The translations under genes and the position numbers were made by a program. The notes under the pieces were generated by a model. That model searched no databases. It was not told the origin of the DNA and saw only the letters and a list, made by a program, of their open reading frames with translations. A stretch of DNA of 39,999 nucleotides from a virus, in the IMG/VR virus record IMGVR_UViG_3300028909_000011; one strand, given 5' to 3'. Each line of letters opens with the position of its first letter. Position 1 is the first letter of the stretch. Below are positions 2,325-34,401 of the stretch, in pieces.

Positions 2325-2455
2325 TGAGAGTAAATTTCGTATTCAAGGATGAGCTTGTAGAGCGCATCAAAAAAGCGTGCGCCAAAAACGGCCAGTCAAT
2401 GTCCGAATTCGTGCGCAGGGCGATAACTGCCGCACTCGAAAAAATGAAGCTGTAA
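2324..2455 (+). CDS. Ribbon-helix-helix (CopG/Arc-like) small DNA-binding protein
   Basis: 43 aa, below the ORF-track cutoff: MRVNFVFKDELVERIKKACAKNGQSMSEFVRRAITAALEKMKL. It shows the beta-strand/helix/helix pattern of RHH proteins. There is no SD, consistent with a leaderless start. Confidence 0.6.
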   Translation: MRVNFVFKDELVERIKKACAKNGQSMSEFVRRAITAALEKMKL

Positions 2456-2474
2456 AACAACCAATGGATAAAAA

Positions 2475-2702
2475 ATGATAACCACCCCATTCGAAAAATA
2501 CACGCTAATCACCAGCGCAATACTGGCGACGATAATAATCGTTCTGTTGATCCGCAATGTCTTCATTGCTCAGGCAGCAGTGACGATTAAAAATACTAAC
2601 CGCACGGCATTTTACCGCCTGCCATCGCATCGCTCGATGATGCTGCATCCGAAGTATTGGATATGCTGGACGTCCGCCCAATTTGGGAGGAGGTTGAAAT
2701 GA
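2475..2702 (+). CDS. Small membrane protein, hypothetical
   Basis: 75 aa with one clear hydrophobic helix (LITSAILATIIIVLLI). Its stop overlaps the next ATG (ATGA at 2699), which suggests it is translated. Confidence 0.45.
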   Translation: MITTPFEKYTLITSAILATIIIVLLIRNVFIAQAAVTIKNTNRTAFYRLPSHRSMMLHPKYWICWTSAQFGRRLK

Positions 2703-2851
2703 ATAAAGCAGAAGAAATCAAACTGCGCTATGACTTCGAGGCCAACTGTCGGCATGCTGGTTTTAGTACGGAGATGAATGCGTTGGCGAAATATGTGGAT
2801 CCTCAGGTGCAAGGGATGTGGAAAGAGGTTAAGGAGCGCGACTCTAAATGA
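2699..2851 (+). CDS. Hypothetical protein
   Basis: 50 aa from the internal ATG at 2699, preceded by a strong SD (GGGAGGAGG, about 6 nt upstream). Confidence 0.5.
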   Translation: MNKAEEIKLRYDFEANCRHAGFSTEMNALAKYVDPQVQGMWKEVKERDSK

Positions 2852-2856
2852 AAAAC

Positions 2857-2885
2857 TTGTAAACAATCAATAATACAATTATGAT
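2857..2885 (+). promoter_or_regulatory. Sigma70-like promoter upstream of the morphogenesis operon (candidate late promoter)
   Basis: TTGTAA (2857-2862), a 17-nt spacer, then TATGAT (2880-2885), in the 123-nt gap before the GroES-like gene. Confidence 0.45.
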
Positions 2886-2922
2886 GAAGCGGTCCCCTTA
2901 TGCGAAGTCATCTCGCATCTTC

Positions 2923-2964
2923 GCCGCTGACGCGCATTGAATTGTGCCAGCGGCATTTTTATTT
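2923..2964 (+). terminator. Leader hairpin plus T-tract (intrinsic-terminator-like) between promoter and first late gene
   Basis: GCCGCTG (2923-2929) pairs with CAGCGGC (2948-2954), followed by ATTTTTATTT. An upstream hairpin GCGAAG (2902-2907) / CTTCGC (2919-2924) overlaps it by 2 nt. Confidence 0.45.
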
Positions 2965-2974
2965 GGATATAATA

Positions 2975-3286
2975 ATGATTACACCATTGCAGGATTACAT
3001 CGTAGTAAAGCCAGTCCAGCGCATGAGGTCTGAAATATTGACCGTCATTACATCAGAGACTGATCAAGGATCATGGGGCGCATATGCTGATGTAATCGCA
3101 GTGGGGCCTGGGCTGCCGAACAAGAAGGGGAAAATTATGCCGCTAGATGCAAAGATTGGCGACCGCGTGATGTATGGCGGTGACCGGCTCGGATGCATCA
3201 ATTTCCCCAAATACGTCGAGGATGGCGTCGAATATCGACTGATACAGGAAGCCGACATCTGTTTTGTGGAGGAATCGAAGTGTTAG
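2975..3286 (+). CDS. GroES-like co-chaperonin (Cpn10 family)
   Basis: 103 aa from ATG 2975. MITPLQDYIVVKP...ADVIAVGPG...IMPLDAKIGDRVMY...EADICFVE parallels E. coli GroES MNIRPLHDRVIVKR...GEVLAVGNG...KPLDVKVGDIVIF...ESDILAIVE. The ATG at 2900 in the ORF track would read through the leader hairpins and adds no homology. Confidence 0.75.
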   Translation: MITPLQDYIVVKPVQRMRSEILTVITSETDQGSWGAYADVIAVGPGLPNKKGKIMPLDAKIGDRVMYGGDRLGCINFPKYVEDGVEYRLIQEADICFVEESKC

Positions 3287-24936: not shown

Positions 24937-25553
24937 TTACCCCGCTCCTGTTAGCGCAGTTCAGTAACGCCATCTATTCGCAGTCCACAGGATGGGACGA
25001 CTATTGGACGCTGGATGATGTCGTGGTGGCACGCAAGCGCGTTGACGATACTGATGTGATCGTGCATCGCGGCTCGGCAGTCGGCTCGGATTGGGTGAAA
25101 AACTTTACCGCTTATCCGAAGTGGCATTCTCAGCTCGGCTATTGCCATGCCGGGTTCCTGTCTGGCATGGATGAGGTATTTAGTGAAGTTCGCGTGGCTG
25201 TCGGCGCAAATGTCGCCATTACCGGTCACAGCTTAGGCGGGGCGCGTGCGCGGATATTGGCGGGACTATTCGCTTACAACAAAATCCCGGTTGATCTGCT
25301 GACCGTATTCGGCGCACCGAAGCCGGGATTTATCAACCTGGCGCGAATCATTCAGAAATCAGGCATCGTGCATACCTCATTTCGCAACAGAAATGACGTC
25401 GTTCCTACGCTGGCGCTGTCAATCGCCCCATTCCTTGAGTTCGTGCATACAGAAGATTGGCAGGTATTGAACGCCGCCCCGGCATCCGATAACTTGGAGC
25501 CGTTGCGGGACCACTCGATTGATTTGTATATCAAGGCATTGTCCGTCGCCTAA
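24933..25553 (+). CDS. Class 3 lipase / alpha-beta hydrolase
   Basis: 206 aa. Nucleophile elbow ITGHSLGGARA, Asp candidate NRNDVVPTL, His candidate RDHSIDLY. ATGA-coupled to the lipoprotein gene. Confidence 0.75.
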   Translation: MITPLLLAQFSNAIYSQSTGWDDYWTLDDVVVARKRVDDTDVIVHRGSAVGSDWVKNFTAYPKWHSQLGYCHAGFLSGMDEVFSEVRVAVGANVAITGHSLGGARARILAGLFAYNKIPVDLLTVFGAPKPGFINLARIIQKSGIVHTSFRNRNDVVPTLALSIAPFLEFVHTEDWQVLNAAPASDNLEPLRDHSIDLYIKALSVA

Positions 25554-26361
25554 CGGCATCTTGACGAGCCTTTTGAGCAATGGACATATTTTTCTTTGCT
25601 TCTGGTGATCTGGTCTTACCTCTATTTGTTTCAGCTATTTTTTTCCTTGTATCTTCCGATACCGGCCTCCCGGTTAATGCCGCGACGATTTTAGCTTTCG
25701 TCTCATCTGTCACTATCCTTGCTCTGCCAATAACAGATAGCTTTTCACGCTGCTCTTGCGACATGGATCGACCGGTTAATGCTGCAGTGATTTTTGACTG
25801 GTGATCAAATGATTTAACTCTTCCTTTATGGAATAGCGAAACCTTTTCTTTGTGCTCATTAGATAATTTTCTCCCGGTAGTTGCGGCCGATATTTTTTCT
25901 CTTTGCTCTGGCGTTCTGATTGATCCGGTATTTGCTATAGAAATTTTTTTACGAGATTCTTCGCCAAGAGTATGACCTCTACTTTTCTCCCCTATAAGCC
26001 TCCGAGTTTCTGCGCTTGGGGACGTCCCCTTTCTTCCTTTTAGTGCTTGCGATATCTTCTTTCTAACTTCGGGCATGAGTGACGGGGATATGTCTCCACC
26101 AGTAGTCATGTTATAGCCTCCGGGAGCCAGCGACCCAGCCTCAGCTATGAATCTAATCTCCTCGTCATGCAAAATATCATTACCGACCTCTGCAAGAGTT
26201 GATACGGATGGATCTCCATATTTTCTCCACGCATGGTAGATCGCTTGATTTTGGTATTTTGATGAGGATTTATGCTCGGCGTAGCGAGAATCTACGGTTT
26301 TTGTAGTAAGACCAACATATTTTTTGCCATTTGAAAACTCAAGACAATAGATAAAGCCCAT
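25531..26361 (-). CDS. GIY-YIG homing endonuclease with about 10 tandem NUMOD3-like repeats
   Basis: 276 aa. GFIYCLEFSNGKKYVGLT...RYAEHK...YNMTTGG is a GIY-YIG core. Ten roughly 17-aa units of the form x-E-x-R-x-K-I-S-x-A-x-x-G-R follow. The 3' end overlaps the lipase 3' end by 23 bp. Confidence 0.85.
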   Translation of the reverse strand: MGFIYCLEFSNGKKYVGLTTKTVDSRYAEHKSSSKYQNQAIYHAWRKYGDPSVSTLAEVGNDILHDEEIRFIAEAGSLAPGGYNMTTGGDISPSLMPEVRKKISQALKGRKGTSPSAETRRLIGEKSRGHTLGEESRKKISIANTGSIRTPEQREKISAATTGRKLSNEHKEKVSLFHKGRVKSFDHQSKITAALTGRSMSQEQREKLSVIGRARIVTDETKAKIVAALTGRPVSEDTRKKIAETNRGKTRSPEAKKNMSIAQKARQDAVRRRTMP

Positions 26362-27850: not shown

Positions 27851-28927
27851 TCAGTAAGAAATTGCAACAGCGGGAATCTTGCCTTGCGCGATCAGCGTTA
27901 CCGCCAGCTTTGCGCACTCCGCAGTCATGCCGCCAGCCACAAATGCGTCAAGTGCAGCACTGTTGATCTTGCGAAGATGGGCCTTGTTGGCCTCACGCTT
28001 GGCAGTTGCATCTGCCTCTGCTTGCAAAACGGCGGCTGCGCGATCCTTTTCATCCTGAATAGCTTTGAGCCTCGATTGCTCGGCACGTTCCTCTGTGTCC
28101 TTGATATCCTGCGCGGCTTTCTGCTCGGCCTCGACACGTTTGCGTTCCGACGTTTCAGCGTCCAGCTTCAATTGCAACTCGCGGCGTTCGGCGTCTTCGC
28201 GCTCCTTCTTCGATCTAGCTTCGGAATCTGCAATGGCCTGCGCCGCCTTTTTCGCTGCGGCCTCTGCGCGCTCCGTGGTTTCGGCCTGAGTTTTGCGTAC
28301 TGCCTCGGCTGCAATCGCGTCGTCACGGTCTTTCTGCGCGCGTGCCGCTGATTCTGCGCGTAGTCGTTCGAGTTCGGCAGCTTCATCGTCGCTCTTGATG
28401 CGCAGCATTAGGCAGGAACGAAGTTGTTCTAAGCGATTCTCTTTTGCGCGCATAGCCTCCACTTCAAGCTCTTCAAAGTCGGCGCCAATCTTCATCGATT
28501 CGATGCCCTCAATTCCCGCGCGCAAATCGTCCTGCGTCTGAGCTAGGGCGTGAAATTCTACGATAGCAGCAACACGGGCTTGCAATGCGGCTTGGCGATC
28601 CGTCTCGCGCTGCTCAATTTCGTCAAGAGGCTCTTGATGAACCTTGATCATGGCTTCGATACGCGATTCAATCTCTGATGCCTCGGAATCCACGGCACGG
28701 CCTTTTTTAAGGTATTCGGCTTTGGCCTCCTTGCGGGTGCGCTCCAATGCACCTTTGGTCAGCCGCAGCGTGTTGATATGGCTACGCGCTTCCTTGTTAC
28801 CTTTTTTCGTCTCATACGCAAAGACGAGGGTGGAGTTGTTCTGCTCCAGTTCGGCAAGTTGCGAGTAAAACGGCGCATACTCGGCAACGGCAGTCTTGCT
28901 TGGTGCGTCGATGATTTCCTGTGTCAT
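27851..28927 (-). CDS. Charged coiled-coil protein (DUF1351-like, recombination-module associated)
   Basis: 358 aa, extremely Glu/Ala/Lys/Arg-rich. It sits next to exonuclease/RecT, where DUF1351-type proteins occur. Confidence 0.45.
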   Translation of the reverse strand: MTQEIIDAPSKTAVAEYAPFYSQLAELEQNNSTLVFAYETKKGNKEARSHINTLRLTKGALERTRKEAKAEYLKKGRAVDSEASEIESRIEAMIKVHQEPLDEIEQRETDRQAALQARVAAIVEFHALAQTQDDLRAGIEGIESMKIGADFEELEVEAMRAKENRLEQLRSCLMLRIKSDDEAAELERLRAESAARAQKDRDDAIAAEAVRKTQAETTERAEAAAKKAAQAIADSEARSKKEREDAERRELQLKLDAETSERKRVEAEQKAAQDIKDTEERAEQSRLKAIQDEKDRAAAVLQAEADATAKREANKAHLRKINSAALDAFVAGGMTAECAKLAVTLIAQGKIPAVAISY

Positions 28928-29553
28928 GATTTAGCCCTCAAAATTGCTTCGTTTGCTGCAACCTTCGCGGAGAATTTCATCAGGTCTTCGACCATGGAAT
29001 CAATGAAATTGTCATCGCGCATTACCCGGCGCCGGAATATTTGCTTGCCGATTCGCTCAAGTTGCGGGCAGTACATAACGAAGTCACACCACTTGCGGCC
29101 CGTTACCCACATTCCGCCCTGCATCTGGTGCATGTATTTCGACATGTCGCCGTCGCGCCACATGTCGATAATGCCGATAGCGCTCGCGAGACACTTGATT
29201 TCGATCATTCCGTCGTCTTCGATAAATCCATCTGTCGAATAGCCGAATAGTCGATCATCGGTCAGTATCACACCTGATTCCGACGCGAGATTGCCAGTCT
29301 CAGCCTCGTAGGCCATGCGGGCGAATGGCTCCAACTCGGTCCCGCGCTTCATCTGCCACGAATTGAAAACTTCGTCGCATGGCTGGCCGCTGATACGCTC
29401 GATTGCTACCTGGGCGGCATAAAGTGTCGATTGGGCTGTCGGCAACCCTTTGGCCGTGGTTTCTATGGCATCGCGGTACTTGCTGGCGGTTATCACGCCA
29501 CATCTGGCAGCATGCCAAGATTCGCTTCCTTGCTCACAAATTATCTCGATCAT
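28924..29553 (-). CDS. YqaJ-type viral recombinase exonuclease
   Basis: 209 aa from ATG 29553. GSESWHAARCGVITASK...MKRGTELEP...GYSTDGFIEDDGMIEIKC is the YqaJ/lambda-exo-like PD-(D/E)xK pattern. Confidence 0.8.
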   Translation of the reverse strand: MIEIICEQGSESWHAARCGVITASKYRDAIETTAKGLPTAQSTLYAAQVAIERISGQPCDEVFNSWQMKRGTELEPFARMAYEAETGNLASESGVILTDDRLFGYSTDGFIEDDGMIEIKCLASAIGIIDMWRDGDMSKYMHQMQGGMWVTGRKWCDFVMYCPQLERIGKQIFRRRVMRDDNFIDSMVEDLMKFSAKVAANEAILRAKS

Positions 29554-29554
29554 C

Positions 29555-30544
29555 TCAATCTCCCCCTTGAACGTATTCGCCGTTTTCTTTATCCATTGCA
29601 TCAACGAATTCGACATCAACAACAGATTCGTTTTTCGCTGGCGCGACATTCTCGACCGTGCGGGCCACTTCTTTTTCCTGCATAGACAATCGATGTGATG
29701 CAATCGCTTCTTTCAGGCGCTTGTGATCAGCCGGTTGCTTGACCAGCTTTCCGTTATTGTCCTTCCAGTATTGGAGTGCGTCGGCATCGGTGGCAGTAGC
29801 GCGGGCGGCGATAATCAGCGGCTCAACATCGACGGAGACTACATCGACGTCGCCCATGTTGCGCACCTGCTGCGCCTGCTTGTTGCCGTCTTCGAGTTCG
29901 TCTCGTGTGTAGACGCCCAGGATCACATCAGGAGCGTACAGGCGCGTCCAGCGCTTCACAGCTAAGTATGCCAACTGCTGCTTTGGATCGGTCGCCCACA
30001 GCGGCGAATTGCGGACACTAGCTTGCTCAAGCAATAGATCCATGATGCGCGGTTCGACCTCTCCTTTTAGTGTCGCCCATACCCGAATGCCTATACCCTT
30101 CTCGGCGGACATGCTGTAATCCGGCACGCGGAATTCGTAGGCCTTTTTGCCATCCTTGGCGGCAACTTGGACGACCTTGGTTTTGCCAATGATGTTTTCC
30201 CACGGGCCGTACCATTCGTAATTGAATCGATCTTCGGTGACGCCGCTGGATTGGATCACGGCATTGACTAGCTGGGCCTCATAGCCAAGCACGCCGTTGA
30301 CCGTGTGCGTCTTCTGCGCGACGGCGAAAGGATTCATGCGCCATTGTATTGCCTGCATAACGATGCCCATGCAATCGCCAACATTGCCCTTTAGATGATC
30401 TGGTATCGTTGACTTGCCTTTTGCCATGACCTCGGCCATGCGATACATCGAGTCCATGCTTGCCGAATCGAGTATCAGTGCGCCGCTGGATTGCGATACC
30501 ACATTCAATTCTTGCGTCTGTACTTCTGTGATTTCATTACTCAT
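29555..30544 (-). CDS. recT: RecT-family single-strand annealing protein
   Basis: About 329 aa from ATG 30544. ...AEVMAKGKSTIPDHLKGNVGDCMGIVMQAIQWRMNPFAVAQKTHTVNGVLGYEAQL is RecT-like. Paired with the YqaJ exonuclease. Confidence 0.8.
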   Translation of the reverse strand: MSNEITEVQTQELNVVSQSSGALILDSASMDSMYRMAEVMAKGKSTIPDHLKGNVGDCMGIVMQAIQWRMNPFAVAQKTHTVNGVLGYEAQLVNAVIQSSGVTEDRFNYEWYGPWENIIGKTKVVQVAAKDGKKAYEFRVPDYSMSAEKGIGIRVWATLKGEVEPRIMDLLLEQASVRNSPLWATDPKQQLAYLAVKRWTRLYAPDVILGVYTRDELEDGNKQAQQVRNMGDVDVVSVDVEPLIIAARATATDADALQYWKDNNGKLVKQPADHKRLKEAIASHRLSMQEKEVARTVENVAPAKNESVVDVEFVDAMDKENGEYVQGGD

Positions 30545-30580
30545 TTTCACCCCTAGTTATTATTCGATTGCCCAAAGAAA

Positions 30581-31918: not shown

Positions 31919-32269
31919 TTAAATCGGAATGTCGTCGTCGTAAATGTCGGATAACATCGGCTCTTGCGGACCAGGAACCTCGGCGGCCGGCGACATCTCC
32001 AAGCACAGCAGCGACTCGATGCGCTCTTTCAGATTCCGAACCTTCTTGTGATAATCATCGGCCATGGAATCTAACTTCTTTTCGATGGCCGCGACCTCGG
32101 CGGCGACGGCGTTGAAATTTTCCGGCACAGTGAATTTAACTGTGTGCGGCACCACGGTTATGTAGCCGTTATTCGTCATCTCATATTCGGAATGCATGAC
32201 AGTTCCATATTCTGACATTACGATGAATCCAGGAATTTCGAATTCCTGACCTGCGATTAGATTTTTCAT
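31919..32269 (-). CDS. Hypothetical protein ending in an SSB-like acidic tip (DDDIPI)
   Basis: 116 aa. The C-terminus ...PMLSDIYDDDIPI compares with the bacterial SSB C-terminal tip ...DFDDDIPF. Confidence 0.6.
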   Translation of the reverse strand: MKNLIAGQEFEIPGFIVMSEYGTVMHSEYEMTNNGYITVVPHTVKFTVPENFNAVAAEVAAIEKKLDSMADDYHKKVRNLKERIESLLCLEMSPAAEVPGPQEPMLSDIYDDDIPI

Positions 32270-32293: not shown

Positions 32294-33094
32294 TTACGCT
32301 TGCTTCGACTCTTCCTCAGCCATCCGCCTCATATCAGCCAATGCATTTTCATTGTCGCAATAAAAATTCGGAAGGCGCTCAGTTTTCCATCGCTCCGTAT
32401 CGCTTGCCATGTAGATTGCCATCGCAGCGGCTGGAGTGCCTATTTTATCCTCAAGTGCTTTGCCGGCTTCTCCAGCGATGGTTATAACCCATCCGGCGCG
32501 ACAATGTGTGGTTCCGCAATGCCACGAACCCATGTTCAGCGCGCCAGGAGCAGACGCCGCAGCGTAGATAACCTGATGAATATTTGGTACTGAAGGGGCG
32601 CCCGCCAGGTTGGCGCCCGTCAGGTCGGCGCCCGCCAGGTCGGCGTACTTCAGGTCGGCGCCCGTCAGGTCGGCGTACTTCAGGTTGGCGCCCGCCAGGT
32701 TGGCGTACTTCAGGTTGGCGCCCGTCAGGTCGGCGTACTTCAGGTCGGCGCCCGTCAGGTCGGCGCCCGTCAGGTCGGCGCACTTCAGGTCGGCGTACTT
32801 CAGGTCGGCGCCCGTCAGGTCGGCGCCCGCCAGGTCGGCGCACTTCAGGTCGGCGTACTTCAGGTCGGCGCCCGCCAGGTCGGCGCCCGCCAGGTCGGCG
32901 TACTTCAGGTCGGCGCCCGTCAGGTCGGCGTACTTCAGGTCGGCGCCCGTCAGGTCGGCGCCCGTCAGGTCGGCGCCCGCCAGGTCGGCTTGTGCTTTCC
33001 GCGCCATATCCAACGTGATTTTCAGTGTGTTTTCTTCGCAATCATGCGAAAAAAGGACATTTCCGTTATAGCGATTTTTAATTTTGATTAGCAT
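32294..33094 (-). CDS. Pentapeptide-repeat protein with a conserved-looking Cys/His C-terminal domain
   Basis: 266 aa. 26 consecutive A(D/N)Lxx pentapeptides (ADLTG/ADLKY/ADLAG/ADLKC/ANLKY...). Followed by ...GSWHCGTTHCRAGWVITIAGEAG.... Confidence 0.9.
   Translation of the reverse strand: MLIKIKNRYNGNVLFSHDCEENTLKITLDMARKAQADLAGADLTGADLTGADLKYADLTGADLKYADLAGADLAGADLKYADLKCADLAGADLTGADLKYADLKCADLTGADLTGADLKYADLTGANLKYANLAGANLKYADLTGADLKYADLAGADLTGANLAGAPSVPNIHQVIYAAASAPGALNMGSWHCGTTHCRAGWVITIAGEAGKALEDKIGTPAAAMAIYMASDTERWKTERLPNFYCDNENALADMRRMAEEESKQA
32600..32989. repeat. Tandem 15-bp DNA repeat array (26 units) encoding the pentapeptide repeats
   Basis: Units such as caggtcggcgcccgt, caggtcggcgtactt, caggttggcgcccgc and caggtcggcgcactt follow head to tail without spacers. 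Confidence 0.9.
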
Positions 33095-33124: not shown

Positions 33125-33349
33125 TTACGGGCAGCAATACGGACTGCCTCCGCAATAGTGTTCATAGCCTGCCATCGGTATTTCACTGATGTCGCAAAGG
33201 ATTTCTCTTCGCTCTCCGCAACAGCAGCACCGAGCCGTGAATGTGCCATCGTTCATTTCATCAACACCGTCTGGCAACATTACCTCTTCCTCGGCCACTT
33301 CCTGTTTCGGTGGCGAAAAATCAGAAAACCATTTCCCGAAGTCTTTCAT
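33125..33349 (-). CDS. Cys-rich small hypothetical protein
   Basis: 74 aa from ATG 33349 (GGAG 6 nt upstream); the ORF track extends to 33403. Contains ARCCCCGERREILC...YCGGSPYCCP. Confidence 0.5.
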   Translation of the reverse strand: MKDFGKWFSDFSPPKQEVAEEEVMLPDGVDEMNDGTFTARCCCCGERREILCDISEIPMAGYEHYCGGSPYCCP

Positions 33350-33498
33350 TTGAATCTCCATAAAATTGTTGGCCCCGGCGATGAATCCGGGATTTAGCAT
33401 CACTTGCGGCGCTTCTGTTTGCGGCTACCGGAACCACCCGGCGATTTGTGCACTTCACGGCAAGTTCTTTGCCCAGTCATCACCCTGCGTTACTACGC

Positions 33499-34154: not shown

Positions 34155-34357
34155 TGCAGGCAAACAAACCGGTAATCAACCGTGCGGATCAACTCACTGC
34201 GATCACCGCAATGAATATATTCCATATACGCATTGGCGAGGATGATGATTACTCGATGTGTGGCGAAGACTTGGCGGATCATTTTGTTCTCCCGTTTGTT
34301 TGCTGCGATGACTGAATCATAGAATTCCGTGCCATGCTTGTCAACAACTATTTTCAA
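34151..34357 (-). CDS. First gene of the early-left operon, hypothetical
   Basis: 68 aa if the TTG at 34357 is used. The next in-frame ATG is 25 codons in, so the start is uncertain. Confidence 0.4.
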   Translation of the reverse strand: MKIVVDKHGTEFYDSVIAANKRENKMIRQVFATHRVIIILANAYMEYIHCGDRSELIRTVDYRFVCLQ

Positions 34358-34372
34358 ACTTTATTCTGAATA

Positions 34373-34401
34373 TTGACATCAGTGGCAAATTGTCGTATCT
34401 T
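34373..34401 (+). promoter_or_regulatory. Rightward early promoter (PR-like)
   Basis: TTGACA (34373-34378), a 17-nt spacer, then TATCTT (34396-34401). It lies in the 65-nt divergent gap, followed by AGGAG and ATG 34423. Confidence 0.55.

Follow-up and report, generated by a model that had tools for sequence, protein, structure and literature searches.

Pentapeptide-repeat proteins (PRPs) are well known, and only a few of them have a known function. The canonical members of the Pfam family PF00805, among them Np275/Np276, HetL and Rfr23, and the designed protein 'Beta1' (PDB entry 4ycq) have in common a beta-helix built from A(D/N)LXX units. The same helix occurs in Qnr, MfpA, AlbG and McbG, which have a short C-terminal dimerisation helix and, in Qnr, loops A and B. 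Here we describe a PRP gene from a 39,999-nucleotide stretch of viral DNA (IMG/VR record IMGVR_UViG_3300028909_000011; the whole stretch is called the window below). By prediction, its product shares the beta-helix of A(D/N)LXX units with all of these proteins; however, natural canonical PRPs are degenerate at the DNA level and lack the C-terminal domain of the window protein, whereas the array of the window gene consists of near-identical 15-mers that change in copy number. Unlike the Qnr group, the window protein, whose array is acidic-surfaced, has no loops, carries a C-terminal domain of about 100 amino acids (aa) and is encoded in the early operon of a phage.

The closest catalogued family is phrog_31265, which comprises proteins of Ralstonia phages and Burkholderia prophages and has no assigned function; we found no paper on this family. 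Annotated members are listed as 'putative pentapeptide repeat protein' in the Ralstonia phages RpY1, RsoP1IDN, RSK1, DLDT_So2 and BHDT_So9; the Bakolyvirus group of Ralstonia phages also has members. The Ralstonia members (RpY1 RpY1_018, RsoP1IDN_4, RSK1, DLDT_So2 ORF30 and Sarlave S3_00013) and those of Burkholderia prophages are likewise three-part proteins, encoded by early-region genes and with variable arrays; none has an assigned function, and the C-terminal domain is shared at 60–65% identity over residues ~101–262. The window differs from them in its units, since ADLKY, ADLTG and ADLAG are atypical of a family in which position 4 is mostly R or S and position 5 mostly G, D or E. With the window gene, this catalogued but unstudied phage family gains a new member. 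New with respect to the libraries and literature searched are the C-terminal domain, the size of its family and its modular partners, as well as the nonsynonymous-only variation between units and a series of array-length alleles in a background free of single-nucleotide polymorphisms (SNPs).

Anatomy of the gene and the predicted fold

The earlier note on this DNA, made from the sequence alone, had read the central part of the protein (residues 36–165) as 26 uninterrupted A(D/N)Lxx units, and our unit table and Tandem Repeats Finder bear this out, the latter giving a single array in the gene (32597–32989, period 15, 26.2 copies, indels 0, score 513). The 26 tabulated units are of six kinds at the DNA and protein level alike: ADLTG (nine), ADLKY (six), ADLAG (five), and ADLKC, ANLKY and ANLAG (two each). 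Variation is confined to nucleotide positions 4, 10, 11, 13 and 14 of the unit, codon 1 (GCC) and codon 3 (CTG) being invariant across all units. The note had also spoken of third-base differences between units, which is wrong: no third codon base varies, and all differences are nonsynonymous. The G+C content of the array is 74%, compared with 48% in the remainder of the gene. Because the repeat is stop-free, long open reading frames (ORFs) of 196, 144 and 153 aa span the array in other frames as by-products.

The protein matches PF00805 with E = 4.4e-46 and 154.4 bits against a cut-off of 20.2, and is a member of that family. The match to phrog_31265 (E = 1.9e-104) places residues 76–265 on profile positions 54–250 of 264 and spans both the array and the C-terminal domain. 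An AlphaFold2 model of the whole protein, run with the family alignment, has a mean predicted local distance difference test score (pLDDT) of 86.9. In this model, the N-terminal cap is a beta-hairpin (strands 2–7 and 13–18) plus a helix (24–33), and its motif I.I.NRWTG.V.F recurs across the family. The array is modelled as a continuous beta-helix with one short strand per unit and pLDDT values of 91–98 for most of its length (residues 40–140); the predicted structure is a right-handed quadrilateral beta-helix of ~6.5 coils, ~31 Å long. The best matches of the whole model in a Foldseek search of the PDB are Np275/276 (2j8k, E = 4.7e-13) and the designed consensus solenoid 4ycq, which aligns with a root-mean-square deviation of 0.5 Å over 128 columns at 51% identity. 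The expectation of an unusually regular pentapeptide-repeat beta-helix is thus confirmed at the level of the model, with pLDDT above 90 through the array.

Membership of the Qnr or MfpA families was rejected: the NCBIfam equivalog scores lie far under their cut-offs (Qnr, 45.4 bits vs 240; MfpA, 52.1 bits vs 360), the array is uninterrupted, and a 101-aa C-terminal domain follows it. Foldseek alignments with Qnr, MfpA and AlbG show only 14–26% identity, the values for Qnr and MfpA being 20–26%. The score of 129.5 against a cut-off of 125 for NF052603 (Alr5209), a sum of three stretches over a 113-position repeat profile, was not taken to indicate membership.

The gene starts with ATG, with a Shine–Dalgarno sequence AAAGGGGA eight bases upstream, and the identical 266-aa protein was found on nine contigs from the Joint Genome Institute (JGI) and the European Nucleotide Archive (ENA); the window corresponds to contig Ga0302201_10000393 of JGI 3300028785. 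The gene is genuine, an accessory early gene carried by an uncultured phage of 40 kb. The terminase of this phage shares no more than 39% identity with the terminase of any isolate, and judged by sequence the phage itself is new. Neither the gene nor 14 kb of the window had a close relative in megablast searches of the phage and E. coli collections, and an exact-pattern scan of a metagenome-contig and a viral-contig collection with the left array junction gave no match, the phage being absent from both.

Array length in assemblies of the phage and across the family

Assemblies of the same phage carry 26, 22, 13, 9 or 3 units, the shorter forms being spread over the same and one second protein cluster. 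Their flanks match the window with 0 mismatches over as much as 3.1 kb (left) and 3.3 kb (right), and every shorter form corresponds to exactly one deletion between internal exact direct repeats of 33–65 bp. The form with 22 units (246 aa, one ENA contig) is explained by a 44/45 bp direct repeat at a spacing of 60 bp, that with 13 units (201 aa, one JGI and one ENA contig) by a 65 bp repeat at 195 bp, that with 9 units (181 aa, a 34-kb JGI contig) by a 65 bp repeat at 255 bp, and that with 3 units (151 aa, five ENA contigs) by a 33 bp repeat at 345 bp. Two of the shorter forms sit on near-complete genomes. The longest contigs of the two extreme forms, 39,668 bp with 3 units and 40,013 bp with 26 units, differ by exactly 345 bp; in a real 3-unit allele, the 45 bp of array (3 units) would lie between GCACAA and GCCCCTTCAG. 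The earlier note had argued that such regularity implies easy length change; at the level of assemblies this holds.

The deletion end-points suggest that the length changes by recombination or slippage between direct repeats. RecT and exonuclease pairs promote annealing between short direct repeats, and the phage encodes its own single-strand-annealing pair of this kind. Near-identical 15-bp units would recombine or slip out of register, so that units would be gained, lost and reshuffled, and the turnover of the array would be much faster than the accumulation of point mutations.

All variant contigs, however, are short-read de Bruijn assemblies, names such as k141_ indicating MEGAHIT, and the opposite reading is that 26 units are stable in this phage, the forms with 22, 13, 9 and 3 units being assembly collapses, with no length polymorphism shown here. 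The end-points all lie in exact repeats of 33–65 bp, the very places at which a low-k graph can short-circuit; short contigs (1.2–6 kb), presumably of low coverage, carry the 13- and 22-unit forms; the 3- and 22-unit forms come from ENA MEGAHIT assemblies only; no SNP in the flanks marks separate lineages; and three GenBank records of Ralstonia phages break inside arrays. On the other hand, the longest exact repeat inside the array is 65 bp and k-mers of 79 or more are all unique, and therefore the 26-unit form can be resolved by assemblers using k = 127–141, while contigs built at k = 141 need sequence that truly spans the junction. The recurrence of the 3-unit form on five contigs, with the exact difference of 345 bp between the longest contigs, the presence of the 13-unit form in both a JGI and an ENA assembly, and the fact that every variant is one clean deletion rather than a multi-jump shortest path also argue against collapse. 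Variation in unit number across the family, which includes finished Burkholderia chromosomes, is real under either reading. Weighing these points, we consider at least some of the short alleles probably real, with some reserve; that all of them are collapses is a substantial possibility, though on balance not the probable one.

It should be noted that the 'complete genome' records MT740725 (Adzire), MT740735 (Elie) and MT740747 (Simangalove), all Ralstonia Bakolyvirus, end inside the array. In these records the PRP gene is cut and annotated only as an 85-aa 'hypothetical protein', which is the C-terminal domain; evidently the repeat interrupted assembly. It is a warning for annotation that neither short-read assemblies nor GenBank records of such phages are reliable at the PRP gene. 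If the length variation is real, the gene would be a natural in-frame contingency locus in a phage, with a mutation rate far above that of point mutation and with changes that could be the work of the phage's own recombinase.

Across the family, arrays have from 1 to 39 units. Unit number is the chief difference within groups of near-identical proteins, and the units of each lineage form a small repertoire particular to it. Between the Ralstonia phage isolates DLDT_So2 and BHDT_So9, the difference is one 3-unit block, ANLVG-ANLSG-ADLDG. A preference for whole coils, that is, for multiples of four units, was rejected, as the unit numbers fall evenly into the four classes modulo 4 (21, 22, 30 and 25).

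Among the variable sites of ten homogeneous arrays drawn from different lineages, codon positions 1–2 account for 34 and position 3 for 5 (binomial p = 0.003). The variable sites are usually nucleotides 4, 10 and 14 of the unit and correspond to the outward-facing residues 2, 4 and 5, which in the window array are the only residues that differ between units. We infer from this bias that neutral differences are erased by homogenisation, whereas differences in exposed residues persist. We also asked whether the units vary through a diversity-generating retroelement and abandoned the idea: the variable sites show no specificity for adenine, and the window genes scanned included none of retroelement type, although no formal search for one was made.

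As a separate observation, Xanthomonas sp. NCPPB 1128 (NZ_LFME01000002.1; loci L027 and L028) has two copies of the family gene with identical array ends, 37 kb apart on one contig, which may represent a duplicated or tandem prophage.

The C-terminal domain and its repeat partners

The suggestion that the last ~100 residues form a separate domain proved correct. With this part alone as the query (residues 160–266), 344 homologous proteins were found, and a domain-only profile matched 1,989 representative clusters at E ≤ 1e-3, 1,387 of them at E ≤ 1e-10, in a library of 1.84 billion proteins. The genome contigs that bear the domain belong to alpha-, beta- and gamma-proteobacteria, Acidobacteria, Bacteroidota, Saccharibacteria and others, with domain identities of 44–89% across contigs of Proteobacteria, Acidobacteria, Bacteroidota and Saccharibacteria. 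The family is thus a very large one of phages and prophages that joins a fast-changing, consensus-like beta-helix to a 100-aa domain present in no library searched.

Modelled alone, the domain has a pLDDT of 90.9 and a predicted template-modelling score of 0.85, with four helices (four to five counting the full model). A Pfam scan of the C-terminal domains of 39 members gave no family even at E ≤ 1, hence no DUF5758 (PF19062), and NCBIfam, PADLOC and a sequence search of the PDB returned nothing for it. Foldseek with the domain model found no PDB match at E ≤ 0.001 and only one 74-aa homologous fragment in BFVD. On the predicted model, the all-alpha Cys/His domain is apparently a new fold.

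The domain, rather than the rod, is the most conserved part of the protein. Its signature is W-H-(0–15 residues)-C-x-T-[TS]-H-C-R-A-G-W; C198, at the N-terminus of the long helix, is invariant, and H173, H192, C193, H197, R199 and E215 are nearly so. The cluster of His and Cys residues (H173, H192, C193, H197 and C198) may form a metal site or an active site.

The same domain occurs elsewhere behind CxxCxx runs such as CSDCSRCSDCSG or behind leucine-rich-repeat (LRR)-like repeats, and some proteins have almost no N-terminal part. Since the domain follows PRP, CxxCxx or LRR-like arrays, we regard it as the constant module and the array as exchangeable. The CxxCxx fusions (L037, L038, L043, L044, L046, L047, L049, L051 and L054; P0186, P0191, P0192 and P0246) include, besides the run given above, others of the type CNYCNHCND..., and have their own cap, ENGNRATIEYWGT. 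No Pfam family matches the repeats in the examples scanned (P0186 and P0192), and they look like a second hypervariable repeat class. A further observation, made by eye, is that many family members (P0004, P0039, P0058, P0083 and others) have ...AA, ...QA or ...VA as their last residues, preceded by an acidic helix, which resembles C-terminal degradation tags.

Two other kinds of phage PRP with an additional C-terminal domain, the PRP-DUF5758 (PF19062) proteins and gp045 of Rheinheimera phage Barba, are not related to the window protein in that part; for gp045, the relation was rejected at an hhalign probability of 0.25%. In Rheinheimera phage Barba17S, two repeat-array proteins are encoded 0.7 kb apart (742–1719 and 2429–3106): gp043, with ~30 NTG(N/D)x units, and gp045, a regular pentapeptide protein with its different C-terminal domain.

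These data bear on what the protein may do. The earlier note had proposed a tunable DNA mimic; worked out further here, the beta-helix would act in the manner of Ocr/ArdA or of Qnr/MfpA, titrating host DNA-binding defence enzymes (restriction–modification, BREX) or protecting or inhibiting gyrase. The modelled fold is that of a PRP beta-helix, which has approximately the diameter of B-DNA, and the window array is acidic, with a net charge of −12 and an isoelectric point of 4.05. The gene lies in an early operon, and in Ralstonia T7-like phages it precedes the primase gene within the early region; Ocr of T7 is also an early-region gene. However, family arrays have a mean charge of −0.31 per unit with a range of −0.8 to +0.33, so that some are neutral or positive. 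The low Qnr and MfpA scores, the uninterrupted array free of Qnr-type loops, the concentration of conservation outside the rod, and the fusion of the same domain to CxxCxx and LRR-like arrays, which are not DNA-like, also speak against a mimic. The protein has no Pfam match to Ocr or ArdA, and neither is among the 50 best PDB matches listed. A DNA mimic is conceivable for this particular array, but because the charge of the array is not conserved across the family, it would not be a family property, and we consider it quite improbable.

Alternatively, the C-terminal domain may be a small Cys/His-dependent enzyme or a metal-binding effector, with the array serving as a target-recognition module as in NleL/SopA; variation in the array would then retune which host protein is hit. 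The invariant and near-invariant residues listed above, the fusion of the domain to three kinds of protein-binding-type repeats, the restriction of variation to surface-exposed positions of the unit, and the presence of NleL among the full-length Foldseek matches are consistent with this. Against it, no fold or sequence similarity to a known enzyme was found, a domain of 100 aa with four helices is small for a catalytic domain, and the Cys/His cluster could be merely a structural zinc site. We regard an enzyme with a targeting module as unlikely and nevertheless as a serious rival to the explanation proposed in the next section.

Early-operon context and possible role

The positions of the parts of the gene and of the operon features discussed here are collected in Table 1. 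The location in a leftward early operon, given in the earlier note, is consistent with the new analysis: a strong promoter-like site lies 1.2 kb upstream of the PRP gene, and a consensus scan found no terminator-like site on the minus strand between the two. RecT is encoded ~1.7 kb downstream in the same operon, and the exonuclease gene is downstream as well. Of 51 family loci, at least 16 (14 of the 40 with enough downstream DNA) encode RecT or a YqaJ/RecE-like protein within ~4 kb on the same strand, a lower bound given that only these two recombinase families were sought. In two loci the next gene, RecT in L017 and YqaJ in L038, overlaps the PRP stop codon. Except for YqaJ/RecT, no neighbour family recurs outside close relatives, and there is no conserved small partner gene beside the PRP gene. 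In RpY1, the PRP gene is the first gene opposite a cI-like repressor.

Table 1. Coordinates of the PRP gene, its parts and associated operon features in the window.
Feature	Coordinates	Strand	Basis
Whole gene, pentapeptide-repeat early protein of the phrog_31265 family, 266 aa	32294..33094	-	ORF list, Pfam, PHROG
N-terminal cap, residues 1-35 (MLIKIKNRYNGNVLF...)	32990..33094	-	AlphaFold2 model
Array of 26 x 15 bp, residues 36-165	32600..32989	-	Tandem Repeats Finder, unit table, AlphaFold2, Foldseek
Conserved all-alpha C-terminal domain, residues 166-266, 101 aa	32297..32599	-	Homologues, AlphaFold2
pL-like leftward early promoter TTGACA-17-TATGAT, 11/12 matches	34316..34344	-	Consensus match only
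RecT annealase	29555-30550	-	Pfam RecT, E = 1.4e-35
RecE/YqaJ-like exonuclease	28924-29703	-	phrog_149 and phrog_434 matches; YqaJ called on sister contigs

The PRP gene is packed between ORFs of 92 and 116 aa, with gaps of 30 and 24 nt. The 92-aa Cys-rich upstream ORF (33125–33403, minus strand), which the earlier note had called Lar-like, has no Pfam match even at E ≤ 1 and matches weakly two PHROGs with no assigned function; the label is unsupported because no small ORF of the left operon in the window matches Lar, Gam, Abc2 or any other Pfam family. The 116-aa downstream gene (31919–32269, minus strand) ends in ...DDDIPI, has no Pfam match and only a weak one to phrog_2479, and is not conserved beside PRP genes elsewhere.

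Two further features of the window may be mentioned. Between the lysis genes and the early-left operon, a 276-aa ORF (25531–26361, minus strand) with a GIY-YIG N-terminus and four NUMOD3 motifs is likely a homing endonuclease. The leftward promoter-like site stands back to back with a strong rightward one, TTGACA-17-TATCTT, the pair occupying 34316–34401; no repressor gene was recognisable in the parts of the window scanned.

Starting from the anatomy, family membership, predicted fold, unit-level variation and operon context documented above, we propose that the C-terminal domain would be a constant working head, binding or catalytic, and the array an exchangeable rod of variable length and surface. 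The protein would neutralise a host DNA-end nuclease or defence factor and so protect the phage's own YqaJ/RecT recombination. As a whole, a modular variable rod with a conserved head is the best explanation we can offer, and we rate it a little short of even probability. The specific role as a counterpart of lambda Gam, to which the genomic context points, is the likeliest we can name, but we put it forward only tentatively and as one that is more likely wrong than right. If correct, it would supply a missing function in the many RecT/YqaJ phages in which no host-nuclease inhibitor is known.

Several points weigh against this proposal. No function is tied to the family by experiment or homology. 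Recombination genes accompany the PRP gene in only about one third of loci, an association that comes without a matched control, and no recombinase was detected in the stretch examined around the PRP gene in Ralstonia T7-like phages. The 3-unit allele, which is too short for one coil, is on apparently complete genomes; if it is real, the rod is dispensable. Not all hosts of domain carriers have RecBCD, and a universal target or an enzyme would account better than RecBCD for how well the domain is conserved across phyla.

Overall, the interpretation given in the earlier note is partly supported. A genetic precedent for counter-defence by a phage PRP exists in Vibrio phage 24, in which deletion of the PRP gene 24_60 sensitises the phage to the Sucellos defence (bioRxiv 10.1101/2024.07.02.601686). 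We found no other functional precedent for a phage PRP in the literature; 24_60 is like the window protein in being a phage-encoded PRP.

The genes of lambda Gam and P22 Abc2, inhibitors of the host RecBCD, lie upstream of annealase and exonuclease genes in the early-left operon, as does the PRP gene. Gam works as a DNA mimic. It has no sequence or fold similarity to the PRP, and the analogy is one of gene order only.

A bolder possibility, which we consider a long shot, is that these proteins may serve phages as a modular weapon whose rod is coded: shuffled units would give new surfaces and lengths, while the Cys/His domain would act on a near-universal host DNA-metabolism protein, making the whole a Gam-like guardian. 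If this were true, the proteins would be among the largest unrecognised counter-host families of phages (~2,000 clusters at 50% identity). The units of such a rod, identical save for three outward-facing residues, would be comparable to the repeats of transcription activator-like (TAL) effectors, which differ only at their specificity residues.

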